The notes: a model not told the origin generated them from the letters alone. A stretch of DNA of 64,000 nt from Candidatus Magasanikiibacteriota bacterium (GCA_041665025.1 JBAYJP010000002.1:64691-128690), one strand, 5' to 3'; positions 9,726 to 44,149 are shown, counted from the first letter of the stretch. Made by a program: numbers and translations.

Positions 9726-10301
9726 ATGCCTGTCAGCAAACTAAAAAAATCCACAACTAAGCGTGGACCGAAGAAAAAAAATCAAAAAACAAAGGCTATT
9801 GAAGAAGCAGTAAAAAATATTCCAAGCATGATCATGAACGAAACATACAACCGCAGTAAAGCCGAGGCTACTACGGTGATTTATCCTGATACAGCCCAAG
9901 AAACCCGCCGCATCCCAAATCCAACAGAGAAACGTGCTGTTGCGCCAATATACGAACCTCCCAAAGGAAGCCACGCGTGGCTATGGACAGGAGTGGTCGT
10001 ATTTGTCGCCGTTATACTCACGATGTGGATATTAAACATGGGAACATTATTTTATCAATCAAAACAAGATCAAGACCCTGCTGAAAGAATTATTGAGACA
10101 AGCAGACAGGATTTACGATCAATCATGGAAACACTGGGGCAAAAAGAAAAAAATAATATACCCGTAACAACTACTACTTCTGAAATAAATCTCGATGAAA
10201 TAGAAAAAATGTTAGAAAAAACAGTTAATGAACTGCCACGCGCAACAACATCCACGTCATCAACTGAATACGGAAGAAATTCGGTACATAGAGAATTATA
10301 A
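9726..10301 (+). CDS. hypothetical protein (basic N-terminus, single TM)
   Basis: 191 aa. Lys-rich N-terminus, one hydrophobic helix (WLWTGVVVFVAVILTMWIL), no recognisable domain. Confidence 0.4.
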   Translation: MPVSKLKKSTTKRGPKKKNQKTKAIEEAVKNIPSMIMNETYNRSKAEATTVIYPDTAQETRRIPNPTEKRAVAPIYEPPKGSHAWLWTGVVVFVAVILTMWILNMGTLFYQSKQDQDPAERIIETSRQDLRSIMETLGQKEKNNIPVTTTTSEINLDEIEKMLEKTVNELPRATTSTSSTEYGRNSVHREL

Positions 10302-15340: not shown

Positions 15341-16654
15341 TTATTTCTTCTTAAACAAAATACTAAATGGCTTAACTTCTTTTTTTAATTCAAATATATA
15401 CGTTCCATTAGCTCCACCATGGCAACTGTCTACTGTTTGTCCATGTACAGTATATATGTTTTGTATGGTAATCTGCAAGTCTTTTGCGTCTGGCTGAAGA
15501 ATATGGATCTTATCACCAACTACAACCGTATTGTGGGGTTTAAAAGTAATTTTAAATATCTTTTTTTCTTTTTCACATGCTAGCACTTGACCCACAAATT
15601 GCTCCTCTCCACCTACATGGCTATTTTCTGTATTTTGTTCAACTGTGTCTCGGCCAAACAAAAATCCAGCGGTATACCCGCGGTGAATGAGGTTTTCTAA
15701 ATATTGTTTTTTAATTAATTTTAATTTCTTCTTATCTGAAATTCCATCCACTGCTTGTCGATATGCCTTAATAACGCTTGAGAGATACGCCACACTTTTT
15801 GCCCTGCCTTCAATTTTGAAACTTGTTATGCCAGCATCAATTAATTCAGGTATATGTTCAATAAGACACAGATCTTTTGAATTGAAGATGTATGTCCCAT
15901 GCATATCTTCTTCCACAGGTATTTTCATACCCGGACGATTTGGCTCTTCAACTTCAACCGCTAAAACATCTCCGAAGCCCACTCGTTTGCTCCCCCTCAT
16001 AGGGGGAGCTGTCTCCGCAGAGACAGAGGGGGTATCTATGTTGTATTTCCAACGACACGGCTGTGCACAATCACCTAAATTTGCACTTCGTCCGGTAAGC
16101 CATGCCGAGAGCATACACCTCCCAGAATAACTCATACACATGGCTCCGTGCACAAAATACTCAAGTTCACATTTTGGAACTCGCTTATGAATTTCTTTTA
16201 TTTCTTTTAGCGTTACTTCCCTGCCTAAGATAACGCGAGAAACGCCTTGCTCATACCAAAATTTTACCGCCTGCCAATTCGTCGCATTTGCTTGAGTAGA
16301 AAGATGAATTGAAATATTTGGTGCGTATTGTTTGACCATTTGTATTACACCTGGGTCAGACACGATAAGTCCATCGGGTTTCCACTGATTTAGTTTTTTC
16401 AAATATGCAGGCAATTGTTTAATATGTTCATTATGCGCGTAAATATTTGCCGTTACATATATTTTTTTTTCCATTGCATGTGCGTATTCGATTGCTTCGC
16501 GCACTTGGTCCAACGTAAATGAATTGATACGTACACGCAAACTAAAATCGGGGATGCCTAAATACACGGCATCAGCTCCATAGGCAAACGCGTATTTCAT
16601 TTTTTCAAAATCACCCGCTGGAGCGAGTAATTCTTTACTTTGCTTTTTAAGCAT
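15341..16654 (-). CDS. peptidase U32 family protein
   Basis: Canonical U32 signature 'ELEYFVHGAMCMSYSGRCMLSAW...GDCAQPCRW' plus N-terminal TIM-barrel 'LLAPAGDFEKMKYAFAYGADAVYLG'. Confidence 0.85.
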   Translation of the reverse strand: MLKKQSKELLAPAGDFEKMKYAFAYGADAVYLGIPDFSLRVRINSFTLDQVREAIEYAHAMEKKIYVTANIYAHNEHIKQLPAYLKKLNQWKPDGLIVSDPGVIQMVKQYAPNISIHLSTQANATNWQAVKFWYEQGVSRVILGREVTLKEIKEIHKRVPKCELEYFVHGAMCMSYSGRCMLSAWLTGRSANLGDCAQPCRWKYNIDTPSVSAETAPPMRGSKRVGFGDVLAVEVEEPNRPGMKIPVEEDMHGTYIFNSKDLCLIEHIPELIDAGITSFKIEGRAKSVAYLSSVIKAYRQAVDGISDKKKLKLIKKQYLENLIHRGYTAGFLFGRDTVEQNTENSHVGGEEQFVGQVLACEKEKKIFKITFKPHNTVVVGDKIHILQPDAKDLQITIQNIYTVHGQTVDSCHGGANGTYIFELKKEVKPFSILFKKK

Positions 16655-16663: not shown

Positions 16664-18184
16664 CTACTTATGTTTCAAAAAATATTCCACAATAGTTTGT
16701 ACCCCAAATCCATTTGCTCCAGCGCGAATCCATGGTTTTCCTTTTCCGTCATAAATAGCACCAGCCAAGTCAATATGCGCCCATGGGTAGAAAGGATTTT
16801 CGTCTTTATCTTGTGTAAAAAACTCCAAAAATGCAGCACCGATGCTTGCCTGTCCATACTTATCAGCACCATTTCCTGCCGCGTTTCTGATATCTGCGAT
16901 TTCACTTTTGTTTACTTCTTTGAACTCTTCACCGAGTGGTAATCTCCATAGTTGTTCACCACATTCCTGCGAAGATGAAAGGAGGCGCTCAACTATTTTC
17001 TCTTCTTGACTAAAAAGCCCAGAACGTTCGAGGCCAACCGCAACCATACAACCACCCGTAAGTGTAGCTAAATCAATAACCTCTTTCGGATTATATTTAT
17101 TTGCATAGCAAAGGGCATCTGCCAAAATCAATCTGCCCTCGGCATCAGTATTTTTTATTTCAACGCTTTTTCCATTATACGCAGTCAAAATATCATCTGG
17201 TCTAAATGCTGAACCGCCTGGCATATTCTCGGCTGCAGGGATAAGGGCGACGATATTTTTCTTGATCTTTAATGACGCAGACACATACATAATACCCAAT
17301 ACTGCTGCGGCGCCCAGCATATCATATTTCATATCTACCAAATAATCCCGCGGCTTAAGGCTCAAACCCCCTGAATCATAGGTCACGCCTTTTCCAACTA
17401 GCACAGTAGGTTTCTCTGTTGCTTTTGAAGCTCCCTTATATTCCACCACAATAAATTTTGGTTCTTCCTGCGAGCCTTTTGCAACACCGAGCAATAAACC
17501 CATTCCCATTTTTTCTAAATTTTTTTTTGAAAAAATCGTGACATTGAGAGAGCCAAACTTCTTGGTATGCGACTGGGCTTCCTTGGCCAAATAACTTGGC
17601 GTCATAATTGTAGGAGGATGATTTCCCAAATGGCGCGCCAAATTGACGCCTTCACCAATAACACGACCGAGCTCAATACCTGCTTCAAACAATTTTTGTT
17701 CAGACGATTTTACATCCAAAATACATTCAATATGTGTCACGAGGGAGACTCGGCTTTCTTTGTCGGTCTTGTGTTCATCATACGCATACGAAGCAATCTC
17801 TACAGCCACAGCAGTTTCCTTGCCTACACGTTTTTTATCCCATTTTTTCGTGATTTCCACAGGCACAACCACTGCAATGTTCTGATTTTTCTTATTCTGT
17901 GCATATACTATGGCAGCGCCAATCACTTCCTTATATCGCTTTATGGTTATGTCTCTTTCTCTGCCCATACCAACAAATAAAACTTTTTTCACCATACTAT
18001 GAGAACCATAAACAAGCGTCATTTCTAATTTTTTGCCCGTTAGATCACCCTCAATCAAATTCTCAACTGCTCTATCAAGCGTCACTCCATAAAATTGAAC
18101 GCCTTTATTTTTTTTATCCTCAAATAAAGGAACGACGAGGATGCTTGACCTTCGAGGCTCAGACAAATAACTATATGAAATCAT
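16664..18184 (-). CDS. pepA: leucyl aminopeptidase (M17 family)
   Basis: M17 signature 'NTDAEGRLILADAL' and metal-binding residues in 'VGKGVTYDSGG'. Confidence 0.9.
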   Translation of the reverse strand: MISYSYLSEPRRSSILVVPLFEDKKNKGVQFYGVTLDRAVENLIEGDLTGKKLEMTLVYGSHSMVKKVLFVGMGRERDITIKRYKEVIGAAIVYAQNKKNQNIAVVVPVEITKKWDKKRVGKETAVAVEIASYAYDEHKTDKESRVSLVTHIECILDVKSSEQKLFEAGIELGRVIGEGVNLARHLGNHPPTIMTPSYLAKEAQSHTKKFGSLNVTIFSKKNLEKMGMGLLLGVAKGSQEEPKFIVVEYKGASKATEKPTVLVGKGVTYDSGGLSLKPRDYLVDMKYDMLGAAAVLGIMYVSASLKIKKNIVALIPAAENMPGGSAFRPDDILTAYNGKSVEIKNTDAEGRLILADALCYANKYNPKEVIDLATLTGGCMVAVGLERSGLFSQEEKIVERLLSSSQECGEQLWRLPLGEEFKEVNKSEIADIRNAAGNGADKYGQASIGAAFLEFFTQDKDENPFYPWAHIDLAGAIYDGKGKPWIRAGANGFGVQTIVEYFLKHK

Positions 18185-18289: not shown

Positions 18290-19219
18290 TTAAATCCTTT
18301 CAATTTTTTTGCCCGTAAAATCTGTAAACTCGCTCCTATCCACTTTCCAAAAATTCAAAGCAACCGGCACTTTGCCAGATCCTCCGGGCGTGTCTATAAC
18401 ATACATAGGACATGCAAGCCCACTAAGACGTGAACGCAATTCTGTCATCATCTGCACTTCTTTATCAAAATCTACAATAAAATGCTCTGCGCCACGAACT
18501 AAATCGCATCTATAAAAATAATATGGTTTTACGCCTATTTCGACGAGACCGCTAAATAAATCATACAACACTCCAACTGAGTCATTTACGCCTGCCAAAG
18601 ATACAGTCTGGGACAAAAGCATGGTAGAAACTTTTTGTAATTTCTTTATTGCTTTCAGTGTCTGTGGTGTTATCTCGGCTGGATGTTCAAAATGAACCAT
18701 GAGATATAATGGCTGTGTTTTTACTACTTTAAGCGCATCAATTACCTTCTGATTTACCATTGAGGGATTAGAGGCGTGAAGCCGGGTGCCCACGCGAATA
18801 ATTTTAATCTGTGGCAAGGCAGAAAATTTTTCTAGTGCTTTCTTCAGCAAACCTGGGACAGTCAAGGGGTCGCCACCGGAAAAAACAAGTTCTCGTATTT
18901 CTGGATGTTTTTTCACATAGGTAACCATCTTATTTAGATCTCTTCCATTGATGACACCTTTTTGGATATCTGATACCTTTCTTCTGCGTGTACAAAAACG
19001 GCAATACGCTGCACAGTTCATGGTTAATAAAACCAGCGCTCGATTTCCATACTTATGGACAAGCCCACGCGTTACTGTGTGTTCTTCTTCCATCAATGGA
19101 TCTACCATGGTTAATTCTTCGTCCTTTTCCTCTTTATCTGAAGGGACGAATTGATTGTATATCGCGGGACAAACCTTGGTGAGTTTTTTTAGATATGGTG
19201 ATAATCGAGTTGCGAGCAT
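18290..19219 (-). CDS. KamA-family radical SAM protein (lysine 2,3-aminomutase / EpmB-like), short form
   Basis: 'CAAYCRFCTRRRK' matches the KamA/EpmB CxxxCRFCxRR radical-SAM motif. 309 aa, shorter than canonical KamA. Confidence 0.65.
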   Translation of the reverse strand: MLATRLSPYLKKLTKVCPAIYNQFVPSDKEEKDEELTMVDPLMEEEHTVTRGLVHKYGNRALVLLTMNCAAYCRFCTRRRKVSDIQKGVINGRDLNKMVTYVKKHPEIRELVFSGGDPLTVPGLLKKALEKFSALPQIKIIRVGTRLHASNPSMVNQKVIDALKVVKTQPLYLMVHFEHPAEITPQTLKAIKKLQKVSTMLLSQTVSLAGVNDSVGVLYDLFSGLVEIGVKPYYFYRCDLVRGAEHFIVDFDKEVQMMTELRSRLSGLACPMYVIDTPGGSGKVPVALNFWKVDRSEFTDFTGKKIERI

Positions 19220-19234
19220 ATTAAAAATAATTAA

Positions 19235-19825
19235 TCAATTTAATTTTAAAATATCCAATATAATTTTTTTATGCTTATCTTTATTTTCGATACAATCTTT
19301 TTTAATTTTGGAAAAATAATTCTGTATTGTTTTATTATCCTCTTCAACTAATTTCAGTGCTTCCCAAACTGATATACCCGACTGACCCATAAGACAGTCC
19401 GCTTCTTCGCCAGGCTCATATACTACTTCCCCTTTCTCATCAACCCAAAAAGGATATATCTTACAAACTAACGGCCTATTATCTCTTAATGTACAGCCGT
19501 GCCCATCGCTAAGAAAAATACAGTCGCCATTTTTATTTTTCTTTATATTAGTTTTAAAAAAATTCTTACCAATTTTAATTAAGCTATTTTTCCACCACGC
19601 TTCATCATCATGCATGCTTTCAAGCTTATATTCGCCAGCAATCACAAAATCTTGAATTTGATATCCGAGGGAAGTTATTGTATTAATATCTTCAATCATC
19701 AGCGGAAATTTCAGCCATCCTTCACAACATGAAACTTTATTTATTTTTTTACATTCAAGACATTTGTTAAATGTGATAGTATCTGCCATACATACCTGCT
19801 TAAAATTATCGACCTGGATATTCAA
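19235..19825 (-). CDS. Cys-rich protein, YkgJ/UPF0153-like putative Zn/Fe-S binding
   Basis: 'FNKCLECKKINKVSCCEGW' clustered cysteines plus further Cys/His downstream. Overlaps the next gene by 20 nt (operon). Confidence 0.3.
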   Translation of the reverse strand: MNIQVDNFKQVCMADTITFNKCLECKKINKVSCCEGWLKFPLMIEDINTITSLGYQIQDFVIAGEYKLESMHDDEAWWKNSLIKIGKNFFKTNIKKNKNGDCIFLSDGHGCTLRDNRPLVCKIYPFWVDEKGEVVYEPGEEADCLMGQSGISVWEALKLVEEDNKTIQNYFSKIKKDCIENKDKHKKIILDILKLN

Positions 19826-20837
19826 TATTATAACGTTTACATGAGGATTTTAAAATTTCCTCAATCATTTGTTCGTAGCTCATTCCTGAACTTTTCGCAG
19901 CCCTCACAAAACGTGAATTCCCTTCAATATGAGGCGTTATTCCTGGCGGACAATTCACTTCAATAAAATATGGTTCTCCATCCACATCTAGTCGGATATC
20001 AAATCGTGCCCAATCTAGCATTTGTAACTTCTCAAAGGCCATAAAACATAGATCACCTATTTTCTTCTCTAACTCTACATCGATGTTTGCAGGACAAACC
20101 AACGGATCTTTTCCTTTGGCTGGATCATCGTACACCCATTTTGATTCGTAATGTTCAAACTTAGGCATATTTTCTGGCAGGTCATCAAATGTGATTTCAA
20201 CAATAGACAATATTTTTGGCGGATTTCCTAACATCCCCACCGTGAATTCCCTCCCCGGTAAATATTCCTCCACAATAACTGGCTGTCTAAATTCTTCTAG
20301 TAATTTCCTTACAACTTTTTTTAAAGAAAAAGAGTCATTAACAAGGTTGCTACTTTTAATACCCTTGCTTGAGCCCTCGCCTAAGGGTTTTGCAAGAGCA
20401 GGATAAAAATCAACGCCCCCATTTTCAATTTCTCCTAAATTTCTAAATACTTTCCACCTAGGAGTCTTGATACCATAAAATCCCAAGATCTCTTTAGCAA
20501 CTGATTTATTTAAACCAACTGCATAACTCAAAGGTTTAGGGCCCGTATACGGGATGCCAAGCATTTCAAGCATCGCAGGAATTTGCGCTTCCCGATCTGC
20601 TCCATGTATACCTTCAGCAATATTAAATACAATATCTATGGTTCCTTTCAAATCTTTCAATTTCAAATATGCATTTTCGTCTGCCTCCACATGAAAGACC
20701 TTATGACCCAACGCCTCAAGTGCCTTAGTAATTCCTTCAATGGTGATTGGCTCATCAAATTCAGCTTCTTTTATATACTGAGGGTCATTGATGTCGGGTT
20801 TAACATGGCGAATATTGTAAGTTAATCCGATGTTCAT
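19806..20837 (-). CDS. ATP-grasp ligase, D-alanine--D-alanine ligase family (paralog 1)
   Basis: Ddl-like N-domain ('EAEFDEPITIEGITKALEALGHKV...FNIAEGIHGADREAQIPAMLEMLGIPYTGP') and ATP-grasp core. Confidence 0.75.
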   Translation of the reverse strand: MNIGLTYNIRHVKPDINDPQYIKEAEFDEPITIEGITKALEALGHKVFHVEADENAYLKLKDLKGTIDIVFNIAEGIHGADREAQIPAMLEMLGIPYTGPKPLSYAVGLNKSVAKEILGFYGIKTPRWKVFRNLGEIENGGVDFYPALAKPLGEGSSKGIKSSNLVNDSFSLKKVVRKLLEEFRQPVIVEEYLPGREFTVGMLGNPPKILSIVEITFDDLPENMPKFEHYESKWVYDDPAKGKDPLVCPANIDVELEKKIGDLCFMAFEKLQMLDWARFDIRLDVDGEPYFIEVNCPPGITPHIEGNSRFVRAAKSSGMSYEQMIEEILKSSCKRYNIEYPGR

Positions 20838-20847
20838 AATTAATATC

Positions 20848-21657
20848 TTATACCGTATCTATGTTATTACTAATCGAAAAGTCATTATCTTCTGTTCTTT
20901 GTTCATCTCTTTGATTGAAAGAATCGTCGAGTTTTTTCCAATCCAAAACCCATACTGTATCTTCTTTTTCTGAATCTTCATCATAATTAATCTGCCCTAC
21001 TCTCACAAAACCACATCTTTCCAACACGCGCTCGGAGTCCACATTCTCTGGGTCAGTGTAAGCTGTTATGGTTAAGTTGGGCTTTAATTCAGGTACTATA
21101 CCTTCGCCCCCACGAGATGGATCAAAACTTCTGCCTAACGTCTGACAAATTTGTCTAACGCCGCTAGATACAAGTCCTCGCTCCTCTTTTTTATCATATC
21201 TCCTCGTGTCGTGTAGACGGGCGTAACTTAATTCCATAACTAGATTTTGTTCGGGTATTTTTACCATTTCTTTTGTGGTCATCTCTTCGATTCTTCTCCC
21301 ATCTTCAGGAAGCATTTGCACCCAGCCCTCTATTTCGCCTTCACTTTCACGGCCACTTACACCATACAGCAATCTATCATTTCCATGTCCTTCAATAAGA
21401 TCTTTTATTTCATCGTCGGTCATTGGATCACCTATCATAAATTCTAAAGCTTTTGGGTTAACATCAGTTTCATGATACCTGTCTATATCTTCTTGTCTCA
21501 TTGCATTTAGAGGACGAATCCTTGCTCTTTCACCTTCGCCAAATGTCCATACACCTGTATCCTCAATTGTTTTCCCAGGTTCAGCGTCGATGTGGTTCCT
21601 TCCTCCTTCTGGGGCGTGCCATTGTCCTAACTCCTTTAGTCCTCTTTCATTTTCCAT
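20848..21657 (-). CDS. GNAT family N-acetyltransferase (RimJ/RimL-like)
   Basis: 'LLYGVSGRESEGEIEGWVQML...ELSYARL' and 'ITAYTDPENVDSERVLERCGFVRVG' match the GNAT A/B motifs; acidic tails. Confidence 0.55.
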   Translation of the reverse strand: MENERGLKELGQWHAPEGGRNHIDAEPGKTIEDTGVWTFGEGERARIRPLNAMRQEDIDRYHETDVNPKALEFMIGDPMTDDEIKDLIEGHGNDRLLYGVSGRESEGEIEGWVQMLPEDGRRIEEMTTKEMVKIPEQNLVMELSYARLHDTRRYDKKEERGLVSSGVRQICQTLGRSFDPSRGGEGIVPELKPNLTITAYTDPENVDSERVLERCGFVRVGQINYDEDSEKEDTVWVLDWKKLDDSFNQRDEQRTEDNDFSISNNIDTV

Positions 21658-21678
21658 ATCATTAATTTAAAACTTTTG

Positions 21679-22680
21679 TTACATGCGTTCACACGCAGAA
21701 TCAATGATCTTCCGTATAAGTTCTTCGTAAGAAATCCCAACTGCTGTACATGCCATAGGTAAATCTGAATGTGTAGGATTCAACCCTGCGAGCGGATTTA
21801 TTTCAAGAAATTGTAACCTTCCATCTCTATCCATTTTTATATCCACTCTCCCGGCGTCCCGACACTCCAAGGCTTGATAGGCTTTTACCGCAATATCAAA
21901 GGCATCCTTGACGATTTCTTGGTCAGTGACAAGTTCATATTTTACTAGTTCTTCACACAATTCTTTGTTTACAAACGAGTAGACATCCTTTTCAGCGTTC
22001 TCAAGCAATTTTATTTCTAGCACTGAGATAGCTCGCGCTTTTTCTCCTGTTCCCCATACGCCGACTGTAAATTCCCTTCCAGGTAAAAATTCTTCTACTA
22101 AGACGGGCTGTTTGTATGTAGATAACAACTCTTGTGTCACTTTCGTCAACTCATCCTGATTATGTACAATGGAATGAGGGTTTACACCCTTACCCGTGCC
22201 CTCACTATTTGGCTTTACAAAGAGAGGAAAAAGTAATAAAAGTGTGTCGAGTTTCTGTAGATCTTCATACGACTTTATCGTATAAAAACCTGGCGTTTTT
22301 ATTCCCGCATCTCGTATTATTCTTTTGGCAACAGATTTATCTAAACTTACAGCCAACGTAAGAGGATCACTAAATGTGTAAGGAATATGGTAGGCTTCCA
22401 ACACAGCAGGAATTTGAGCTTCTCTATTTCTTCCATTCTCACCTTCGGCTATGTTAAACACAAGATCCCAACATCTACCATCGACAAGTTTTTTTTGAAG
22501 TTCAAAAAAATTCCCAATCCGCTCAACGGTATGACCAAGTTTTTCTATAGTATTAAACAAAGCGTCTATAGTAGCCGGGCTATCAAATTCAGCCTCTTCA
22601 AGAGAGCTGATATCTTTTTGATCTTCTTCCACAACAGAGGAACGTAAATTAAATGTCAAACCAATATGCATATAAGACAT
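21679..22680 (-). CDS. ATP-grasp ligase, D-alanine--D-alanine ligase family (paralog 2)
   Basis: 'EAEFDSPATIDALFNTIEKLGHTV...FNIAEGENGRNREAQIPAVLEAYHIPYTFS'; same architecture as paralog 1. Confidence 0.75.
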   Translation of the reverse strand: MSYMHIGLTFNLRSSVVEEDQKDISSLEEAEFDSPATIDALFNTIEKLGHTVERIGNFFELQKKLVDGRCWDLVFNIAEGENGRNREAQIPAVLEAYHIPYTFSDPLTLAVSLDKSVAKRIIRDAGIKTPGFYTIKSYEDLQKLDTLLLLFPLFVKPNSEGTGKGVNPHSIVHNQDELTKVTQELLSTYKQPVLVEEFLPGREFTVGVWGTGEKARAISVLEIKLLENAEKDVYSFVNKELCEELVKYELVTDQEIVKDAFDIAVKAYQALECRDAGRVDIKMDRDGRLQFLEINPLAGLNPTHSDLPMACTAVGISYEELIRKIIDSACERM

Positions 22681-23729
22681 TATGTGACCCTTGTCTTTAA
22701 TCTATATGATAAGTTATTCAGTATGGTCTTTAATGTATCTTCAAAAGATATACCATACAAATTCAAAACATTACTAATAGCACAGTTACACTCAAGAGAT
22801 CCAAAAGCAGGGTTTGCATTAGAATCTATAATATAATATTTTCCGTTTCTCACATCCTCGCGAATATCAAACTTGGCATAGTCATTCATCTTCAACACAC
22901 AAAAAGCTTTCTGAATTTCCATTTCAAACTGGGTCCCTTTGATGTCTTCTCTTTTTTTATATTCAAATATGTCTTCATCCCCCCACTTGCCAATATGCGT
23001 ATCAATAACATACTTGCCCTGGCGTGTAAATTTTTTTTCTGTCACGTACACATGCATCTTATCTTCGGAGGCATTGTCCTCCAATACCATAGCAGTCAGT
23101 TCTTTTCCTTCAATATATTCTTCCACTATAACCGACTGGTGATATATAGACATCAATTTTTTCACCCTCTTCTGTAAATGCACCACGTCTTCGCTAATCG
23201 CTGACTCATCTATTTCTATGCTGCCATGAATCCCATTAAGTTTCGAAATCAATGGAAAATTCAACGTGTCGTGCAAAACAAAATCCTCTTTTTCAACAAG
23301 CTGATACGGGGGGATAGATATGTCATATTTTTCTAAAATAATATGCGATAGAAACCTATTACGATCATATATTAATCCCTCTGTTCCTGTACCTAAATAA
23401 GGTATACCCAATATGTCTAATACCGCCGGAAGACCAGGCCCAAAATCCTCTCTTCCATGGATAGTATCAGCCAAATTCAAGACGAATAGTGGATTATTTT
23501 TTGTGAGATAATCTATCATCTTATCGTCAGCGGGGACCGTGTCGACTGCAAATCCCAAATTCTCAAAATATGGAACTATTTTCCGAGCGTCATCACGCAA
23601 ATATGATTCTGCTACGTATTCAGCTTCGGTATTAAAGTATTCTCTTTTTGCCTCAGTATAAAGAATTACTACTTTTTTAGGTAAAAAAAAATTGTTTCCT
23701 TCTCTAATCATATTTTTGTCCTTTGACAC
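22680..23729 (-). CDS. ATP-grasp ligase, Ddl-like (divergent paralog 3)
   Basis: 'LNLADTIHGREDFGPGLPAVLDILGIPYLGTGTEGL' plus C-terminal ATP-grasp fold. 1-nt overlap with paralog 2. Confidence 0.65.
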   Translation of the reverse strand: MSKDKNMIREGNNFFLPKKVVILYTEAKREYFNTEAEYVAESYLRDDARKIVPYFENLGFAVDTVPADDKMIDYLTKNNPLFVLNLADTIHGREDFGPGLPAVLDILGIPYLGTGTEGLIYDRNRFLSHIILEKYDISIPPYQLVEKEDFVLHDTLNFPLISKLNGIHGSIEIDESAISEDVVHLQKRVKKLMSIYHQSVIVEEYIEGKELTAMVLEDNASEDKMHVYVTEKKFTRQGKYVIDTHIGKWGDEDIFEYKKREDIKGTQFEMEIQKAFCVLKMNDYAKFDIREDVRNGKYYIIDSNANPAFGSLECNCAISNVLNLYGISFEDTLKTILNNLSYRLKTRVT

Positions 23730-23960
23730 AGAAAATTATTTTGCCAACTAAAAAACCCAGACGGCTTTTGTCGTTTGGGTTATGTCAAATAAATAATTGT
23801 TTATCTTAGGAAAAGGATCCAAATCTTGTGACCTTTCAAGGTCCATAAATACATATAATGGCTCTCGCCAATTTACCACACTGCGTGGAGCAGGCAGTAG
23901 AAGAACGGTTTCGTTCTCTCAAATTGTACCACCACCATACGTGGTGTCAATAGATTTTTG

Positions 23961-26927
23961 CTACTTTTCCACAGAAAGGCTAAGAGACATTCCATCCAGC
24001 TTGACTTCAATTCCGCCAGCATGTTTTTTCAAATCTGTCGCAAGCGTTCCTTTTTTTATTTCATCGCCATATTCCTTAAACACTGTGTTTAGAAGTTCAT
24101 CAGACGTCTCATAGCCTACCACAACCGAGTCTTGAATAGTTAACTTTTGTTCTTTGCGCATTTGATTGATGGTGCGGACAATTTCTCGGACAAGGCCTTC
24201 TTTTTTAAGCTCACCATTAATCTCTGTATTCAACGCAACCTTTAAACTACCGTCTTCTTTCATTATCCAATTTTTTTCTAAATCTACAGCTTCACTTATT
24301 TCCTTTATATTTAATTCTTCAGAAATAATAACCTTCAATTCGTTTGAAAATTGAAAATTAAAAATTGAAAATTGTGAAAGTGGCTGTCGTACTTTTATAC
24401 CTGCTTCAGCACGTAACGCAAGACCCATCTCAACAACCTTCCTCACCTGTGCCATATCAATTATAACTTGATCATCTATCATTTTTTCATCAACCTCTGG
24501 CCACTTTTCTAAATGCACACTTTCACAATCAGTTCCTTGTTCGTTGTTCCTTGTTCCTTGGTACACTTTTTCTGCAATAAAAGGTGTAAATGGAGCCATT
24601 ACTTTGGACAAAGTTAGAAGCACTTCGCGCAAAACTGATGTCGCAACTTCCACGTCTTCGGAATTGTCGCCTTTGAAACGATCACGTGAGCGACGAACAT
24701 ACCAAGTTGACAGTTCATTAATAAATTCAAGAATTGGTCTACTTGCTGCAGTCATATTATAACCTTCCATGGCAACTGTCACATCTTTAACTAGTATCTG
24801 CAATTTGGCGAGAATCCATTTGTCCAATACACTCAAAGATTTCGAATTTCGAATCCTTAGACCCGGACTTAGGGTTTCGAATTTCGAATTTTTCGATCCG
24901 TACATCTCATAAAAAGCTACAACATTCCATAAGGTGTTATTCAATTTGTTAAAAATGTCTTTAACCTCGCGATCATTAAAATATAAATTATCTGCCTGCA
25001 TCACTACACTACTCATAAGATAATAACGCAAAGCATCTACGCCATATTCTTCAATTATTTTCCATGGATCAGTATAATTCATTTTTGACTTAGACAATTT
25101 TTCTCCTTTTTCATTCAAGATAGTACCCGTACATACCACATTTTCAAAACTAACATTATCAAACAATAAAACGGCCATGACATGCATGTAATAAAACCAC
25201 GCGCGCGTTTGAGCGATGTATTCTGCGATATACTGGCCTGGGAATCTTTTTTTGAAGGTCTCAACATTTTCAAATGGATAATGAAATTCAGCAAAAGGCA
25301 TAGACGCTGATTCTACCCAACAATCTATGACTTCTGGAATGCGTGTCATTTCTCCTCCACATTTCTCGCATTTCAGCTTGATTTTGTCCACGTTGTGCTT
25401 GTGCAAATCTAATTCTTCGACTTTGTCTGTTTTATAGACTTCATCAAAATTAATTGCTTTTTCTTTTAGCTCTTGTACACTCCCAATACATACCGTTCCG
25501 TCACATTCTTTATTATTACATTTCCAAAATGGCAAGGGGGTTGCCCAAAAACGATTACGGGAAATATTCCAGTCTGGCGCGGTTTCCAAAATATTCAAAA
25601 ACCGTCCGTGCTTAAGATTGTCTGGGAACCAATTAACTTTTTCGTTAAATTCAATAATTCTTTTTTTCTTGTCTTGGATATTTATAAACCATGCAGAAAT
25701 AGCGTTGTAAAAAAGTTGTGTATCACAACGCCAGCAATGTGGGTATGAGTGTGTATGACTCTGTCGTGCAAACAACAATCCGCGATTTTCCAAATCATCT
25801 TTAATCGCTTTCTCTGCTTTTTTGAAATATTGACCTCGTATAAACTCCGGAGATAATTCATTGAAATGTCCTTTGTCATCAAGCAAGGGAACCACCGGCA
25901 AACCAATTTTCAACCCTAAGTTATAATCGTCCTCACCATATACAACAGCGGTATGTACCACGCCAGTTCCTTCTTCAGTCGTCACAAAATCCGCGCTAGT
26001 CACATACCACGCTTTTTTGCCCGTTTCGTGAATAGCGGGAATATCAAATAATGGTTCGTATTCCAAACCTACTAAATTTCCACCCAATACCTGCTGTACT
26101 ACTTCAAACTCCTTTCCTTCAACATAATTCATCAATCTATCCTTGGCAATAATATAGTGATCTTCTCCCAATTTTACGAGGCTATATTCAATTTTTTCTC
26201 CTACTGCCAATGCCACATTTCCCGGCAATGTCCACGGCGTAGTCGTCCATGCTAGAATATATGTATTTTCCGGCAACTCAATCTTTTGATCTTTTGATCT
26301 TTTGATCTTAAATTTCGCGGTTACCGTCTCTTCTTTAATATCCTTATAACTATCGTCCATCGCAATTTCTGCTTTTGAAACCGGCGTTTCACAGTGCGGA
26401 CAATACATAAGTACTTTTCTGCCTTCGTAAATCAAACCTTTATCCCAAATTGTTTTGAGAGACCACCATACGGATTCCATGTACACAGGATCCATGGTCT
26501 TGTACGCATTATCAAACTCAACCCAGCGGCCAATTCTATTGACCATTTTTTTCCACTCCTTTGTGTACATGAGAACTTTTGATTGACATGCTTCATTAAA
26601 TTTATCCACACCCAAATTTTCTTCAATCTGTTTTTTTCCTGAAACTTTCAATTCTTTTTCGACCAAATTTTCAATTGGTAACCCATGACAATCCCACCCC
26701 CAACGCCTTCGCACACGATAACCTTTCATAGTCCAGTAGCGAGGGACTACATCTTTAATTACTGAACTCAAGATATGCCCGTAATGAGGCAAGCCTGTCG
26801 CAAACGGAGGTCCATCATAAAATACATACGGATTATTTTCCGGACGTTCACTCACTGATTTTTCAAAACACTGGTGCTCGTCCCAGTACTTCAAAATTTC
26901 TTGTTCGTTTTGGTTGGCATTGTACAT
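23961..26927 (-). CDS. ileS: isoleucine--tRNA ligase (type 2, archaeal/eukaryote-like)
   Basis: HIGH region 'YDGPPFATGLPHYGHIL', KMSKS 'LSKSKMNY', 988 aa. Contains several in-frame heptamer microsatellites (24346-24372, 24536-24556, 24838-24895, 26282-26312). Confidence 0.9.
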   Translation of the reverse strand: MYNANQNEQEILKYWDEHQCFEKSVSERPENNPYVFYDGPPFATGLPHYGHILSSVIKDVVPRYWTMKGYRVRRRWGWDCHGLPIENLVEKELKVSGKKQIEENLGVDKFNEACQSKVLMYTKEWKKMVNRIGRWVEFDNAYKTMDPVYMESVWWSLKTIWDKGLIYEGRKVLMYCPHCETPVSKAEIAMDDSYKDIKEETVTAKFKIKRSKDQKIELPENTYILAWTTTPWTLPGNVALAVGEKIEYSLVKLGEDHYIIAKDRLMNYVEGKEFEVVQQVLGGNLVGLEYEPLFDIPAIHETGKKAWYVTSADFVTTEEGTGVVHTAVVYGEDDYNLGLKIGLPVVPLLDDKGHFNELSPEFIRGQYFKKAEKAIKDDLENRGLLFARQSHTHSYPHCWRCDTQLFYNAISAWFINIQDKKKRIIEFNEKVNWFPDNLKHGRFLNILETAPDWNISRNRFWATPLPFWKCNNKECDGTVCIGSVQELKEKAINFDEVYKTDKVEELDLHKHNVDKIKLKCEKCGGEMTRIPEVIDCWVESASMPFAEFHYPFENVETFKKRFPGQYIAEYIAQTRAWFYYMHVMAVLLFDNVSFENVVCTGTILNEKGEKLSKSKMNYTDPWKIIEEYGVDALRYYLMSSVVMQADNLYFNDREVKDIFNKLNNTLWNVVAFYEMYGSKNSKFETLSPGLRIRNSKSLSVLDKWILAKLQILVKDVTVAMEGYNMTAASRPILEFINELSTWYVRRSRDRFKGDNSEDVEVATSVLREVLLTLSKVMAPFTPFIAEKVYQGTRNNEQGTDCESVHLEKWPEVDEKMIDDQVIIDMAQVRKVVEMGLALRAEAGIKVRQPLSQFSIFNFQFSNELKVIISEELNIKEISEAVDLEKNWIMKEDGSLKVALNTEINGELKKEGLVREIVRTINQMRKEQKLTIQDSVVVGYETSDELLNTVFKEYGDEIKKGTLATDLKKHAGGIEVKLDGMSLSLSVEK

Positions 26928-36745: not shown

Positions 36746-37032
36746 ATCTTGTATAGATTACTAATTTATCCTATTGAAACCTTTGGCACAAATAAAAAAA
36801 CAGCTACTGCAATGGCAATACCTGCTACTAAATAAAGATAGACCCACGAAAAATCCGCCTGCTGTACGCCGAAATCCCCTTGTTTGTGTTGCATATGTGT
36901 TTTTTAATATTAACTCTACTGACCGTGATCAATTAGGCCAATAAAATCAATATTATGTATACAGTATAGCAGAAAAAAGTACGTTTGTCAATAGATTTTT
37001 TATTGATTTTTAATAAAAAGTGTCGTACAATA

Positions 37033-37107
37033 TACACGTACCACGTATCACATAACACATATCAAATATTTAAATTGATACGTGATACGTGCTATGTGAT
37101 ACGTGAA
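37033..37107. repeat. ACGTG-family heptamer palindrome (R6)
   Basis: 'acacgtaccacgtatcacataacacatatcaaatatttaaattgatacgtgatacgtgctatgtgatacgtg', ending 3 nt before the recombinase ATG. Confidence 0.8.
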
Positions 37108-37110
37108 CAT

Positions 37111-38136
37111 ATGGCGACAACTCTCAAACAATATCTCACCGAATTTCTTGAACACCTGGAAATCGAAAAAAACCGCAGCCCAAAAACACTGCAGAATTAT
37201 GATTTTTATTTAAGACGTTTTATAGAATGGTTTGGAGACAAACATCCTGAAAAAATAACTGGCGAGGATGTACGTCAATACCGACTTTGGCTCAATAGGC
37301 TCTGCGATGTACACGGAGAACCACTGAAAAAAAATACCCAAAACTACCATCTCATTGCTTTGCGTTCATTTCTGAAATACTTGGCCAAACGCGATGTAAA
37401 GACACTGCCCCCTGAAAAAATAGAACTAATGAAAATGCCTGATCGTGAGGTTAGTTTTCTTGAAGGTGGGGATTTGAATCGTATTCTAGAAGCGCCGTTC
37501 AAACACTTGAGCACGAAAGCACTTGCCTGCCCGCCAAATGGGAGGGAGCACGAAAGCACAAAGACAAAAATACCGCCCACACTCCTCATAGCCCATCGCG
37601 ACAAAGCGATTTTGGAGTTGTTATTCTCGACGGGTTTGCGCGTGTCTGAGCTCGCCAAGTTAAAAAAGGAAGATGTAAATTTAAACCGAGACGAATTTAC
37701 CGTAACGGGAAAAGGACGAAAAACTCGTGTTGTATTTTTATCAGAACAAGCGCGATATGCTATAAAAAAATATATAGAAATCCGCGGAGATCTAAATCCG
37801 TATTTATTTATTTCTCACGACAAACGCACGGGACCTAACAAAAAAATAAAAAATGGTAAGATGGCTGATGACGACCAACCATTGACACCTCGTTCTATTG
37901 AACGGACGGTGCAAAAATATGCCCGAGAAGCAGGGATTACCAAGCATGTCTCGCCACATACCCTGCGACACTCTTTTGCTACAGATTTACTCCAAAATGG
38001 AGCCGACATCCGCAGTGTACAAGCAATGCTTGGACACTCGTCTATTACGACAACTCAAATTTATACGCATATAACAGACAAAGAACTTAGAAATATCCAT
38101 AAGAAATTCCATGGCAAACACAGAGCTGATGATTGA
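37111..38136 (+). CDS. site-specific tyrosine recombinase (XerC/XerD / phage-integrase family)
   Basis: N-terminal SAM-like domain ('LEHLEIEKNRSPKTLQNYDFYLRRF') and catalytic 'HTLRHSFATDLLQNGADIRSVQAMLGHSSITTTQIYTHI' (R..H..R..Y). Start at MATTLKQ; the ORF-track prefix is repeat read-through. Confidence 0.8.
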   Translation: MATTLKQYLTEFLEHLEIEKNRSPKTLQNYDFYLRRFIEWFGDKHPEKITGEDVRQYRLWLNRLCDVHGEPLKKNTQNYHLIALRSFLKYLAKRDVKTLPPEKIELMKMPDREVSFLEGGDLNRILEAPFKHLSTKALACPPNGREHESTKTKIPPTLLIAHRDKAILELLFSTGLRVSELAKLKKEDVNLNRDEFTVTGKGRKTRVVFLSEQARYAIKKYIEIRGDLNPYLFISHDKRTGPNKKIKNGKMADDDQPLTPRSIERTVQKYAREAGITKHVSPHTLRHSFATDLLQNGADIRSVQAMLGHSSITTTQIYTHITDKELRNIHKKFHGKHRADD

Positions 38137-38161
38137 CAATTGGGCTAAAAAGCGATAAAAT
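38133..38161 (+). promoter_or_regulatory. sigma70-like promoter for tRNA-Arg
   Basis: TTGACA-17nt-TAAAAT; the -35 lies inside the last codons of the recombinase gene. Confidence 0.5.
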
Positions 38162-38181
38162 TTGCATATTAATTATGCCTT

Positions 38182-38253
38182 GCGCTCGTAGTTCAATGGA
38201 TAGAATAGAAGCCTTCTAAGCTTTAGATCAAGGTTCGATTCCTTGCGGGCGCA
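38182..38253 (+). tRNA. tRNA-Arg (anticodon TCT)
   Basis: Cloverleaf: acceptor GCGCTCG/CGGGCGC, D-arm GTTC..GAAT, anticodon stem GAAGC/GCTTT with loop CTTCTAA, T-arm CAAGG-TTCGATT-CCTTG. No encoded CCA. Confidence 0.8.
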
Positions 38254-38340
38254 CTATAATATGGTATGATAGAATAGTTGTTTCCTAATTAAGTAATAAT
38301 TTTATAAAAAATAGCAACCTTTATTCTTAACCTTTCACAT

Positions 38341-39078
38341 ATGTGGGGAACACTCTTGGGAATTGTAGTCGTTGTGCTTCTCATTAGCATACGACAAGTC
38401 AACCAATACCAACGTGGCGTCAAATTTCAACTGGGTAAATTTACCAAAATGGTACAACCTGGATGGCGTTTAGTCTTGCCCATTATCCAAAGCATGACAA
38501 AAGTAGACATTCGTACCAAAGCAGTAGATATGCCTTTGCAAGAAGCACTTACCAAGGATAATGTATCTGCAAAAATTAACGCGGTCATTTACTACAAAAT
38601 TGTAGATGTTGCAAAAGCAATTTTGGAAGTAGAAAATTTCTGGTTTGCCGTTAGTCAGCTCGCCCAGACAACCATGAGAAATGTGGTCGGTGAACTTGAG
38701 CTCGATGAACTCTTGGCAAATCGTGATGCGGCCGCACGACGCATCCAACAAATTCTTGAGAAGACAACACAATCGTGGGGTATACAGGTAGAAAGCGTGG
38801 AACTCAAAGATATTGTATTGCCTGACAACATGCAACGCGTCATTGCCAAACAAGCTGAGGCAGAACGTGAAAAACGTGCAGTTATTATCAAAGCAAGTGG
38901 TGAATATATCGCAGCGGAAAATATTGCAAAGGCTGCTCAAGTACTTTCTGGCACTCCTGGAGCCCTTCATTTGCGCACGCTAAGCACTATAAACGATTTG
39001 AGCTCTGACCAGTCAAATACCGTGATATTTGCAATTCCTCTTGAGGTTTTGCGCGCGTTTGAACGGATGGGAAAATAA
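38341..39078 (+). CDS. SPFH/Band-7 domain protein (stomatin/prohibitin-like)
   Basis: N-terminal TM then SPFH core ('VDIRTKAVDMPLQEALTKDNVSAKINAVIYYKIVD...VVGELELDELLANRDAAARRIQ'). Confidence 0.8.
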   Translation: MWGTLLGIVVVVLLISIRQVNQYQRGVKFQLGKFTKMVQPGWRLVLPIIQSMTKVDIRTKAVDMPLQEALTKDNVSAKINAVIYYKIVDVAKAILEVENFWFAVSQLAQTTMRNVVGELELDELLANRDAAARRIQQILEKTTQSWGIQVESVELKDIVLPDNMQRVIAKQAEAEREKRAVIIKASGEYIAAENIAKAAQVLSGTPGALHLRTLSTINDLSSDQSNTVIFAIPLEVLRAFERMGK

Positions 39079-39132
39079 ACACAGAATACACGCCTGCCTG
39101 CCGGCAGACAGGAATTAAAATGAATTAGACTG

Positions 39133-39162
39133 AAATCCGCCTACTGCAAAGGCGGATTTTTA
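39133..39162 (+). terminator. intrinsic terminator
   Basis: 'AAATCCGCCtactgcaaaGGCGGATTTTT' after the SPFH gene, preceded by palindrome 'cctgcctgccggcagacagg'. Confidence 0.6.
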
Positions 39163-39196
39163 CTTGTGAAATCTTTTAAAATCAGTGTAATCAATG

Positions 39197-39225
39197 TTGA
39201 CAAATGTGAAATATCCCAGTATACT
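39197..39225 (+). promoter_or_regulatory. sigma70 promoter for tRNA-His
   Basis: Consensus TTGACA-17nt-TATACT about 45 nt upstream of the tRNA. Confidence 0.6.
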
Positions 39226-39270
39226 TTCTCCGTTAAAAGTCAGACTCAAGGTAAATTTTAAAAAAAGAGG

Positions 39271-39343
39271 TTCTCTCAGGGGTGGCTATGGTATAACGGT
39301 TATTACTTCGGTTTGTGGTACCGACAATACGGGTTCAATTCCC
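39271..39343 (+). tRNA. tRNA-His (anticodon GTG) with extra 5' G(-1)
   Basis: Anticodon stem TCGGT/ACCGA with loop TTGTGGT, T-arm ACGGG-TTCAATT-CCCGT, acceptor GTGGCTA/TAGCCAC, discriminator C. D-arm parse is ambiguous by 1 nt. Confidence 0.7.
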
Positions 39344-39491
39344 GTTAGCCACCCCCAAGGGAATCTCCCGACAAAAAGCCTACAATAGGCTTTTTTATTT
39401 ACCTGTTTAAAAGTGATATAATGAGGGTACCAATCATTTTTGCATAGGGAATTCACTCTGTTTATTGCTCCCCTATGCCAAAATTTAATAT

Positions 39492-41145: not shown

Positions 41146-41151
41146 AGTATA

Positions 41152-41601: not shown

Positions 41602-41610
41602 AGCATGCTT

Positions 41611-42021: not shown

Positions 42022-42029
42022 ACTATGCT

Positions 42030-42140
42030 TAAAGATTAAAAGATTGCAAGATTAAAAGATTGAAAGATTAAAAGATTTTGAAATACTGTAATTTGGTATC
42101 CAATCACAATCTTATAATCTTTCAATCTTTTAGTCTTTCT
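42030..42140. repeat. family-4 heptamer inverted repeat pair ('AAGATTAAAAGATT' / 'AATCTTTCAATCTT'), no gene enclosed
   Basis: 'aaagattaaaagattgcaagattaaaagattgaaagattaaaagatt...aatcacaatcttataatctttcaatcttttagtcttt'. Confidence 0.75.
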
Positions 42141-42205
42141 CTTTTGTATCTATGACCTTAAAACTAAGGACGACGTCTGGAAGATATCACCCCCCATGCA
42201 ACGCG

Positions 42206-42586: not shown

Positions 42587-42609
42587 TTATTCTATAATAT
42601 TTTTTATTT

Positions 42610-43296: not shown

Positions 43297-43299
43297 AAT

Positions 43300-44142: not shown

Positions 44143-44149
44143 ATAGTAA

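Follow-up and report, generated by a model that had tools for sequence, protein, structure and literature searches.

The EpmB–EpmA–EF-P system (YjeK/PoxA in Escherichia coli) and the AblA/AblB pathway are among the described systems closest to a gene cluster that we analysed in a 64,000-nucleotide stretch of DNA (GCA_041665025.1, JBAYJP010000002.1:64691–128690; hereafter the window), part of a 440-kb contig of Candidatus Magasanikbacteria (Patescibacteria; ~38% G+C). The cluster joins a short KamA-family radical-SAM aminomutase to three ATP-grasp enzymes resembling Ddl (D-alanine–D-alanine ligase), here called AG1, AG2 and AG3, and is preceded by a regulatory leader. The Epm system likewise uses a short KamA-family aminomutase without the C-terminal domain of lysine 2,3-aminomutase (LAM). 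Among relatives of the locus (numbered with L), one carries a kamA-epmA-efp operon (L082) and another has EpmA adjoining the cluster (L015), and EF-P of the lineage keeps the lysine of its PGKG loop. However, the window KamA, like the short KamA clade as a whole, is approximately equidistant (35–38% identity) from EpmA-adjacent EpmB proteins and from LAM, and no Epm system with ATP-grasp ligases was found in the searched literature. The AblA/AblB pathway also places a lysine 2,3-aminomutase and a GNAT acetyltransferase in one operon, and a small cytoplasmic solute is made there from beta-lysine; the product proposed below is likened to this solute. The pathway differs in that the window proteins miss the models of both enzymes, the GNAT is dispensable in relatives, and what is conserved beside the aminomutase is a set of two or three amide ligases.

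The N-acetylglutaminylglutamine amide (NAGGN) operon asnO-ngg-aminopeptidase, known from Sinorhizobium and Pseudomonas (PA3459–3461), encodes a non-ribosomal N-acetyl-dipeptide pathway that draws on four classes of enzyme, namely a peptide-forming enzyme, a GNAT, an amidotransferase of the PP-loop type and an aminopeptidase (PMC8070244). All four classes are met again among the clusters studied here, a likeness by class for which we claim no sequence relationship; in contrast, NAGGN has no aminomutase, the present clusters have separate Ddl-type ligases, and the PP-loop-like protein is absent from the window. Stand-alone ATP-grasp enzymes also join amino acids stepwise in the L-amino-acid ligase (LAL) pathways (BacD/YwfE, RhiM/RhiC of rhizocticin, TabS), where two ligases sometimes act in series, reportedly RhiM and then RhiC (PMC13579937). 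One relative (L033) fuses a LAL-type module to a Ddl-like module, whereas the window ligases lack LAL domains (the match to BL00235 reaches 29 bits) and the cluster, surrounded by housekeeping genes, is conserved by vertical descent rather than lying on a mobile biosynthetic island. With Ddl and Van ligases the window enzymes share the fold, the Pfam domain and the ATP-grasp catalytic residues, and the operon shares the logic of an unusual-substrate enzyme, a ligase and a peptidase; they differ by the change of omega-loop Tyr216 to Trp and of His63 to Glu or Asp, by an insertion relative to Ddl before the N-terminal AE motif, and by the lack of a mur context.

The leader resembles ribosome-mediated transcription attenuators, for which pyrBI-type coupling, mgtP and EF-P-dependent read-through are examples. 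Where a polyproline stretch precedes an intrinsic terminator, read-through depends on EF-P, which keeps the terminator open (PMC5021804). Common to these systems and the present leader are a short open reading frame (ORF) running into an intrinsic terminator and a proline-rich stall motif upstream of it; the present leader differs in having no Shine-Dalgarno sequence or identified antiterminator, and in using an acidic-Pro-x-Pro motif rather than a run of one regulatory codon. The enzyme classes are all known, whereas the literature searched describes neither their combination and its retention across Patescibacteria nor the three clades of non-Ddl ligases and the leader with its proline motif. 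Nothing relevant was found there that links KamA or EpmB to ATP-grasp enzymes, or Ddl to the Candidate Phyla Radiation, and no description of the pathway was found, in agreement with the initial annotation, which was made from the sequence alone and regarded this as no described pathway.

A predicted conserved unit of leader, two ligases and aminomutase

A scan anchored on an alignment of KamA orthologues, with one genome per species, yielded 80 loci, in which ORFs were called and searched with the window proteins. Ddl-like ligases lie directly upstream of KamA at 28 of these loci, co-directional and often overlapping, usually in the order AG1-type, AG3-type, KamA; such clusters span Magasanik-, Kuenen-, Peregrini-, Roizmanbacteria and others. 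The conserved unit thus outlined appears to comprise a promoter, a leader ORF running into a terminator, AG1, AG3 and the short KamA, and is both smaller than the six genes first proposed and extended further upstream. In the window, its core genes lie on the minus strand: AG1 (22680–23711; 343 aa; Dala_Dala_lig_C, 40.9 bits), AG3 (19806–20837; Dala_Dala_lig_C, 104.2 bits) and KamA (18290–19219; TIGR00238, 214.3 bits). Matching gene calls for the 440-kb contig are already in public records, where AG1 begins with the ATG at 23711; if the GTG at 23729 is taken as the start instead, the gene spans 22680–23729.

Much of what the initial annotation reported is borne out. Its six minus-strand ORFs are all present where it had placed them, and Pfam and NCBIfam profile searches agree with its domain calls (three Dala_Dala_lig_C proteins, GNAT, CxxCxxCC and KamA). 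The packing is tight and operon-like, with intergenic gaps of −1 to 21 nt, and the flanks are as described, with IleRS (23961–26927) upstream of AG1 and M17 and U32 genes downstream. The proposed co-conservation holds for the ligases and KamA, which are kept as a unit in the 28 loci mentioned, and does not hold for the six-gene combination itself: the GNAT has no orthologue in the other clusters seen, the Cys-rich gene occurs in only two other clusters, and M17 and U32 are probably bystanders.

Our best reading of the locus, plausible but somewhat short of probable, is a leader-regulated pathway that would assemble a small peptide or amide containing beta-lysine, which could also be acetylated and which peptidases would turn over. 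A small-peptide pathway is suggested by the combination of a constant aminomutase, two ligases and leader with variable acetyltransferases, peptidases and amide-forming enzymes. Our confidence goes no further because it is gene position that ties the ligases to beta-lysine.

The short KamA and its link to EF-P

The KamA motif CAAYCRFCTRRRK, cited earlier, is present, and the score of the protein exceeds the KamA-family cut-off of TIGR00238 (199.2 bits). It lies under every equivalog cut-off in NCBIfam, with 212 against 369.3 bits for EpmB (TIGR03821) and 243.6 against 525.4 bits for AblA. In an alignment with Clostridium LAM (2A5H), Cys69, Cys73 and Cys76 form the radical-SAM motif CxxxCxxC, Lys283 corresponds to the pyridoxal phosphate lysine Lys337 of LAM, and Asp239 and Asp276 correspond to its Asp293 and Asp330, which in LAM hold the epsilon-ammonium group of the substrate lysine. 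The catalytic residues are invariant or nearly so in 30 orthologues. The protein lacks the C-terminal Zn/oligomerisation domain of LAM (residues ~345–416), ending 19 residues past the aligned core, and also lacks ~55 N-terminal residues. Because the catalytic and lysine-binding residues of LAM are kept, conversion of lysine to beta-lysine is the likely reaction.

Orthologues of this KamA occur throughout Patescibacteria at 45–80% identity and in an Armatimonadota clade at ~50%. Since KamA proteins from loci with ligases and from loci lacking them are intermingled on the tree, the short KamA appears to be one orthologue and not two paralogues; the trees used here are neighbour-joining trees on BLOSUM distances and support coarse grouping only.

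In the Armatimonadota loci (18 among L061–L088, e.g., L064 8596–11200), KamA is the middle gene of a conserved triad, preceded by a 467-aa protein and followed by an 80-aa glutaredoxin. The 467-aa partner has no match in Pfam, NCBIfam or PDB; the idea that it is a cryptic ATP-grasp enzyme was not supported (hhalign probability of 1.4% against the AG3 profile).

The initial annotation had taken the lack of a nearby EpmA/EF-P partner as an argument against a role in EF-P modification. Neither epmA nor efp was found in the 64-kb window, but this argument fails in relatives, five of which (L082, L015, L020, L092 and L174) link the cluster or its KamA to epmA. In L082, whose KamA branches at the base of the short KamA clade, kamA, epmA and efp form an overlapping operon. 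In L015 and L020, where KamA is 70–73% identical to that of the window, the array reads IleRS-EpmA-DUF218-CxxC-AG1-AG3-KamA, and EpmA passes both curated cut-offs. EpmA and EF-P lie 5 kb from AG1-AG3-KamA in L092, and EpmA lies 7.5 kb upstream of AG1-AG3 in L174. EpmA is common in Magasanikbacteria, where L175 (8629–12009) shows the order S6-SSB-S18-EpmA-small ORF-EF-P, and the EF-P proteins of related Magasanikbacteria and other Patescibacteria keep the PGKG-loop lysine invariant. The KamA encoded in the epmA-efp operon of L082 scores 212.7 bits on TIGR03821, as low as the window protein; the EpmB model therefore does not appear to cover this clade. Linkage of KamA to epmA amounts to 3–4 independent cases in ~85 loci, which is modestly above chance apart from the overlapping L082 operon. 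Taken together, KamA is probably the EpmB of the lineage or the phylum, whatever else it feeds.

At ~57400–58000 the window has SSB-S18 followed by a TrmB-like gene, at the place where L175 has EpmA/EF-P; EpmA and EF-P of this genome are either elsewhere or lost.

In L015 and L020 the promoter and leader sit between the CxxC gene and AG1, so AG1-AG3-KamA is predicted to be a transcription unit of its own, with EpmA a neighbour and not an operon partner. No ligase was seen next to EpmA among the 80 EpmA-anchored metagenome loci listed (mostly canonical, non-Patescibacterial EpmA, ≤41% identity), where the classical EF-P/EpmA/EpmB arrangement was found and from which genuine EpmB sequences were taken; for this reason the ligase association appears specific to the present KamA clade.

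Ddl-family ligases below the Ddl thresholds

AG1, AG3 and the accessory paralogue AG2 (21679–22680, minus strand; 108.6 bits) all pass the Dala_Dala_lig_C cut-off of 24 bits. Their scores stay below the curated Ddl cut-offs, both for PRK01372 (71.7, 163.5 and 161.9 bits for AG1, AG2 and AG3 against 243) and for TIGR01205 (51, 142 and 148.4 bits against 245.65); the ligase orthologues of L015, at 91.8 and 182.5 bits, are also under the Ddl cut-off. No curated Ddl or Van cut-off was reached by any of the three in the NCBIfam search. Their earlier description as three paralogous ligases is right as regards the shared domain, but AG1 is far more divergent than the other two.

The solved structure closest to AG3 is E. 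coli DdlB (86.7 bits). AG2 and AG3 keep all DdlB residues involved in ATP and Mg binding and phosphoryl transfer: K97, K144, E180, E187, K215, R255, D257, E270 and N272. The AG1 clade has fixed substitutions R255K, E270D, Y216W and S281C, the first two being conservative; K215 varies among its members, and the other ATP- and Mg-binding residues are kept. The positions that determine D-Ala specificity in Ddl (H63, Y210, Y216 of the omega loop and L282) are altered, with changes fixed per clade: in this order, E, D/E, W and R/Y in AG3; E, Y, E and D in AG2; and D/G, A/D, W and A in AG1, the N-terminal alignment columns being less reliable. We conclude that AG1–AG3 are predicted Ddl-family enzymes that fall outside the limits set for Ddl itself. 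The initial annotation had named firm clustering with genuine Ddl as an outcome that would speak against its proposal; the scores below curated thresholds and the differing substrate-loop residues point the other way.

The ligases form three clades on the tree, AG1, AG2 and AG3. Homologues of AG3 at 50–75% identity are widespread in Patescibacteria, and AG1 is found directly upstream of AG3 in ~20 loci. AG2 is missing from most clusters; an orthologue with 77% identity occurs in L176, which is a sister genome that comes from the same sample, and L054 (Peregrinibacteria) carries another member of the AG2 clade. No mur gene was found in the 64-kb window.

A leader with attenuator geometry

The initial annotation did not include a regulatory leader, which occupies 23748–23950 in the 230-nt spacer between IleRS and AG1. 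It begins with a sigma-70-type promoter on the minus strand (23923–23950; TTGACA, 16 nt, extended −10 TGgTACAAT), which scores 11/12, is the best site of the region and starts 10 nt past the IleRS stop codon. A promoter of the strict pattern TTGACA-17-TGnTAnAAT precedes the leader ORF in 13 of 20 relatives, and one is visible by eye in most others; an equivalent promoter is also present in L015 and L020, where the upstream genes run co-directionally.

The promoter is followed by ~70 nt of untranslated 5′ leader (23847–23916, minus strand) that folds into three hairpins. The full leader (23712–23918) folds at −51.6 kcal/mol, with z = −2.68 relative to shuffled sequences. Two or three such hairpins recur in L010, L013, L027, L029, L033 and L176, and compensatory changes are seen in 7 of 12 predicted pairs; the structured element is absent or short in L011, L032, L174 and L019. 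Some lineages may thus share an RNA element that has so far gone unrecognised. Rfam gave no match to a riboswitch or known leader, either in the IleRS–AG1 spacer at a permissive threshold or in the whole window at the gathering threshold, and a lysine riboswitch or T-box was dropped as an explanation because the spacer has no Rfam match.

The leader ORF (23748–23846, minus strand) has 32 codons and encodes MDLERSQDLDPFPKINNYLFDITQTTKAVWVF, followed by a stop codon. It starts with MDLERSQDLDPFPK, and its conserved part, the N-terminal 13 residues, ends in (D/E)(D/E)-P-x-P. The ORF reads through a terminator-like hairpin, CCCAAACGAC-AAAA-GCCGTCTGGG followed by UUUUUU (23750–23779, minus strand), and stops at the end of the U-run. 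Because its stem has mismatches, the hairpin was missed by a consensus scanner. Among relatives, the stop codon of the leader falls in the hairpin loop, just past the hairpin or ≤10 nt before it. Short ORFs homologous to it stand 5′ of the cluster at 17–18 of 25 ligase loci. With a fixed pattern, the leader ORF was found upstream of 17 of 25 ligase loci and of 1 of 51 KamA-only loci (Fisher p = 4e-10, uncorrected for phylogeny). This layout sits 5′ of the cluster whatever its first gene, be it a C39 peptidase (L176), a fusion ligase (L033), AG3 (L027) or KamA (L023).

The encoded peptides fall into two classes, with MDLxRSxx(E/D)(D/E)P(F/L/Y/N)P in the Magasanik group (class I) and x(8-12)(D/E)(D/E)PP(S/P)(G/D)C elsewhere (class II). 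In other lineages the motif appears as DEPPP, DDPPSGC, SEPPSGC or DDHPPDC, with differing nucleotides. The class II motifs DPP, EPP and EPPP are classical EF-P-dependent stalls. Within the motif, variation is greatest at third-codon positions, and conservation ends where the motif ends. Because of this third-codon variation, and because the motif is shared across classes without nucleotide identity, the comparison argues for translation of the leader ORF. Its start codon sits in a small hairpin. A fold in which CCUUUUCC pairs with the AAAGGA of AG1 and sequesters the Shine-Dalgarno sequence was dropped, as it is not conserved in L010. The predicted promoter, ORF and terminator have the geometry of an attenuator, which is conserved in relatives.

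A sequence similar to class II, MKSEDEPPSS..., also occurs in a Shapirobacteria locus without ligases (L087, ~9840–10010), in frame with or running into the KamA start; it may be an assembly artefact, as the sequence contains an N.

Accessory genes in the window and in relatives

The remaining genes of the window cluster vary between relatives. The GNAT-fold acetyltransferase (20848–21657, minus strand; 269 aa with acidic tails) scores a weak 30.7 bits on Acetyltransf_3 (cut-off 25.4) and has no NCBIfam hit at E ≤ 0.01 and no PDB sequence match. None of the other clusters examined has its orthologue; the only sequences resembling it are parts of ~785-aa proteins in L036 and L037. The Cys-cluster protein of the CxxCxxCC (YkgJ/UPF0153) type (19235–19789, minus strand; PF03692, 29.7 bits, cut-off 23) has 184 aa from its ATG or 196 aa from a TTG at 19825, and a promoter-like site lies at 19854–19827. 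Its orthologues are restricted to L015 and L020, where they stand upstream of the leader promoter.

GNATs of other types occur in the clusters of L010, L023, L046, L051 and L176, and at least four unrelated types can be told apart. That of L010 (Acetyltransf_3) resembles the amine acetyltransferases SpeG/AAC(6′), an Acetyltransf_1 type is found in L051, L023 and L046 (the L051 type matches PDB 2R7H, E = 9e-36), and L176 has an Acetyltransf_6 (Fem/CelD-like) protein. Peptidases in or beside the clusters include C39-like proteins (L048, L176), an S51 member of the PepE/cyanophycinase family (L030) and S58 peptidases of the DmpA/BapA family (L057, L058). In L033 (6212–14108; Magasanikbacteria), where the cluster is preceded by the leader ORF (MDLLRSLDEDPFPQKFK), two ~795-aa fusions of a LAL-type ATP-grasp (ATP-grasp_4 + LAL_C2) with a Ddl-like module flank KamA, a PP-loop-like protein and a SET-domain protein. 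PP-loop-like proteins of 450–530 aa stand beside AG1 or replace it in four loci (L033 8618–9991, L092 5344–6825, L091 6374–7957 and L028 66–1571); they share the motif SFGK(D/E)S and a C-terminal SC...WCxxCxKCA cluster, and their PDB matches are exclusively PP-loop ATPases, at weak values (E ~0.1). Such content of the accessory slot, i.e., amide makers, amine acetylators and peptidases for unusual peptides, fits what a small-peptide pathway would recruit. The stepwise assembly of a small peptide put forward in the initial annotation is consistent with this recruitment of further amide-forming enzymes, GNATs and unusual peptidases.

In two Peregrinibacteria (L054 4900–5865, L059 3920–4885) a 321-aa CxxC-repeat protein without a Pfam hit follows a cluster of three ligases and KamA.

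Downstream of KamA, the M17 leucyl aminopeptidase (16664–18184, minus strand) passes its NF002074 cut-off (440 against 415 bits), and the TrhP-like U32 protein (15341–16654) remains below its own (435 against 534 bits). The KamA–M17 gap of 105 nt contains a promoter-like site (18242–18214); M17 is probably a separate transcription unit, and its operon membership is uncertain. M17 also stands downstream of KamA in L033 and in the ligase-free L021. Because of this promoter-like site, and because both genes also follow KamA in L021, M17 and U32 look like conserved synteny outside the unit. At this place 13 Magasanik-type loci (L015 11049–12023 and 12 others) have a 324-aa NIF3/DUF34-like gene right after KamA.

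Proposed pathway and alternative explanations

We propose the following sequence of steps. KamA would convert L-lysine to beta-lysine, as its conserved catalytic and lysine-binding residues suggest. AG1 and AG3, together with AG2 in the window, would each make one amide bond after converting a carboxylate to its activated acyl phosphate, a step to which the intact ATP-grasp catalytic sets and the non-Ddl substrate loops point. The GNAT would acetylate the product, or an intermediate on the way to it, at a free amino group, while the Cys-cluster protein may, speculatively, serve the radical-SAM enzyme or modify a lysine amine. As the most economical guess, the product might be a compatible solute that is N-acetylated, as acetyl-beta-lysine and NAGGN are. 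The same KamA probably also acts as EpmB, supplying beta-lysine to EpmA for Lys34 of EF-P. Transcription would start at the dedicated promoter and be gated by the short leader ORF, whose acidic-acidic-Pro-x-Pro motif may slow or arrest the ribosome upstream of the terminator. A ribosome pacing the polymerase would melt the terminator and turn the operon on, and a stalled ribosome would let the terminator form and turn it off. Candidate signals are the activity of EF-P, a metabolite of cationic nature (for instance the product), or the supply of Asp-, Glu- or Pro-tRNA. A bolder version, which we consider doubtful, is that the leader peptide is a nascent-peptide sensor reporting the state of EF-P modification or the cationic beta-lysine product, and thereby controls the only beta-lysine synthase of the cell and ligases that make an undescribed beta-lysine peptide.

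A number of points weigh against the leader-regulated beta-lysine pathway. The use of beta-lysine by the ligases is suggested by gene adjacency, which is weaker evidence in Patescibacteria than in other phyla, as their gene arrays mix functions. No ligase is nearby at 52 of the 80 KamA loci, and our statistics are uncorrected for shared ancestry. About a third of the ligase clusters have no leader ORF. Where the ORF is present, no locus shows a Shine-Dalgarno-like sequence 5–12 nt before its ATG, the folds reveal no conserved antiterminator pairing, and the P-F-P of class I is not a classical polyproline stall. An AG3 orthologue stands alone after dnaJ in L090, and the AG1-AG3 pair of L174 has no KamA next to it; the ligases may therefore not need KamA. 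AG3 could still be a housekeeping Ddl.

In L174 (18581–20856) the order is IleRS-AG1-AG3-NIF3, with no KamA between AG3 and NIF3 and with the leader ORF kept.

Several of these points lead to an account in which there is no joint pathway: KamA would simply be the Patescibacterial EpmB, AG3 a housekeeping Ddl and AG1/AG2 its paralogues, and their adjacency would be inherited synteny. The solitary AG3 of L090, which lies in a housekeeping array, the KamA-free AG1-AG3 pair of L174 and the ligase-free majority of KamA loci all agree with it, as do the linkage of KamA orthologues to EpmA/EF-P and the NCBI name of AG3, "D-alanine--D-alanine ligase". No canonical Ddl was seen in ~1.4 Mb of Patescibacterial DNA, which also favours this account, although only about one would be expected there. 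It is opposed by ligase scores well under the curated Ddl cut-offs, by the clade-fixed H63E, Y210D and Y216W at Ddl specificity positions, and by the tight, overlapping AG1-AG3-KamA order that persists across deep lineages under one promoter and leader. Housekeeping synteny would also leave the repeated gain of GNATs, peptidases and extra ligases unexplained, and we regard the account as unlikely.

Remodelling of cell-wall peptides, by the logic of a Van operon or an interpeptide bridge, would instead have KamA make a non-standard amino acid, the ligases build an alternative dipeptide or side-chain, and the peptidases remove the standard form. The nearest characterised relatives of AG2 and AG3 are indeed Ddl and Van ligases, and the operon resembles the VanH/VanA/VanX pattern of an unusual-substrate enzyme, a Ddl-like ligase and a peptidase. 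Some loci add suggestive neighbours, namely the Fem/CelD-like Acetyltransf_6 protein of L176, S58 peptidases from a D-Ala-amidase family and a YkuD L,D-transpeptidase (L001/L026), and the structure matched by the L051-type GNAT was called a "putative D-alanine N-acetyltransferase" by its depositors. However, mur, murF or racemase genes were seen in none of ~30 clusters, two or three ligases exceed the needs of a dipeptide swap, and the SpeG-like GNATs and the PP-loop-like enzyme would have no obvious role; we know of no peptidoglycan that contains beta-lysine. This explanation seems improbable to us.

The conservation of the leader ORF as a peptide permits a further interpretation, in which the short ORF is a substrate or scaffold instead of, or in addition to, a regulator: the ligases would hang beta-lysine or other amines on its Glu/Asp pair, and C39-like or other peptidases would release the product. 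In a variant of this interpretation, it is the beta-lysyl group of EF-P that the ligases would lengthen. The peptide has two invariant acidic residues adjoining prolines and, in class II, a conserved Cys in PP(S/P)(G/D)C, which would suit such a substrate, as would the C39-family peptidase directly after the ORF in L176 or within the cluster in L048 and the SET-domain protein of L033; ATP-grasp enzymes loading amines onto peptide carboxylates are established in LysX/LysW, RimK and the graspetide ligases. However, the ligases are of the Ddl type, a family known for small-molecule substrates, and the peptide has no double-glycine site. Its C-termini show no conservation, may extend just 4 residues beyond the motif and follow from the terminator hairpin, while a stop codon inside the terminator loop corresponds to attenuator geometry; the clusters that lack the ORF add to the difficulty. 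Such modification of a peptide or protein is quite unlikely in our view. A graspetide, or more generally a ribosomally synthesised and post-translationally modified peptide, cluster was also considered and rejected, given the Ddl-type ligases and a peptide with only ~13 conserved N-terminal residues and a tail set by the terminator.

A plain AblA/AblB pathway, in which KamA and the GNAT make the osmolyte N-epsilon-acetyl-beta-lysine and the ligases are irrelevant, would account for the pairing of KamA with a GNAT in one operon here and in L010, L023, L046 and L051, but is very improbable given the low AblA score of KamA (243.6 of 525.4 bits), a GNAT that matches no NCBIfam model, AblB included, and the fact that GNATs are the variable and ligases the constant part of the cluster.

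Other features of the window

Outside the cluster, ~12 paralogous T4SS_pilin (PF18895) genes occupy 40585–50410 on the minus strand, with solute-binding protein and NTP-transferase genes interspersed or adjacent. A tyrosine integrase (36985–38136, plus strand) lies beside tRNA-Arg(TCT) (38182–38254), and tRNA-His follows at 39281–39357; the region 36985–39357, next to the pilin array, may be a site of integration. A group I intron is matched at 60495–60723 (minus strand) with 87.9 bits, where the gathering score is 50; the match begins ~60 nt downstream of tRNA-Ala(TGC) (60781–60856) and precedes a 230-aa ORF (59695–60387). No rRNA genes were detected in the window.

Implications

Patescibacteria have stripped-down genomes with very little biosynthetic capacity, and are largely uncultured and host-dependent. 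An ATP-costly, regulated operon that is kept across several classes of organisms with almost no biosynthesis should therefore matter to these cells. The analysis names the likely EpmB of the phylum, and it implies that "D-alanine--D-alanine ligase" labels on AG1–AG3 may overstate the peptidoglycan capacity inferred for these genomes. If the ligases do use beta-lysine, they would represent a new Ddl-like family with beta-amino-acid substrates, and their product a new natural product or solute. The stall motif of the leader peptide may sense a metabolite or how well EF-P functions, which would, if confirmed, be a new example of nascent-chain control. Should it act as the nascent-peptide sensor outlined above, it would point to a Patescibacteria-specific metabolite or an extended EF-P modification, and would tie the translation of proline motifs to a dedicated small-molecule pathway.

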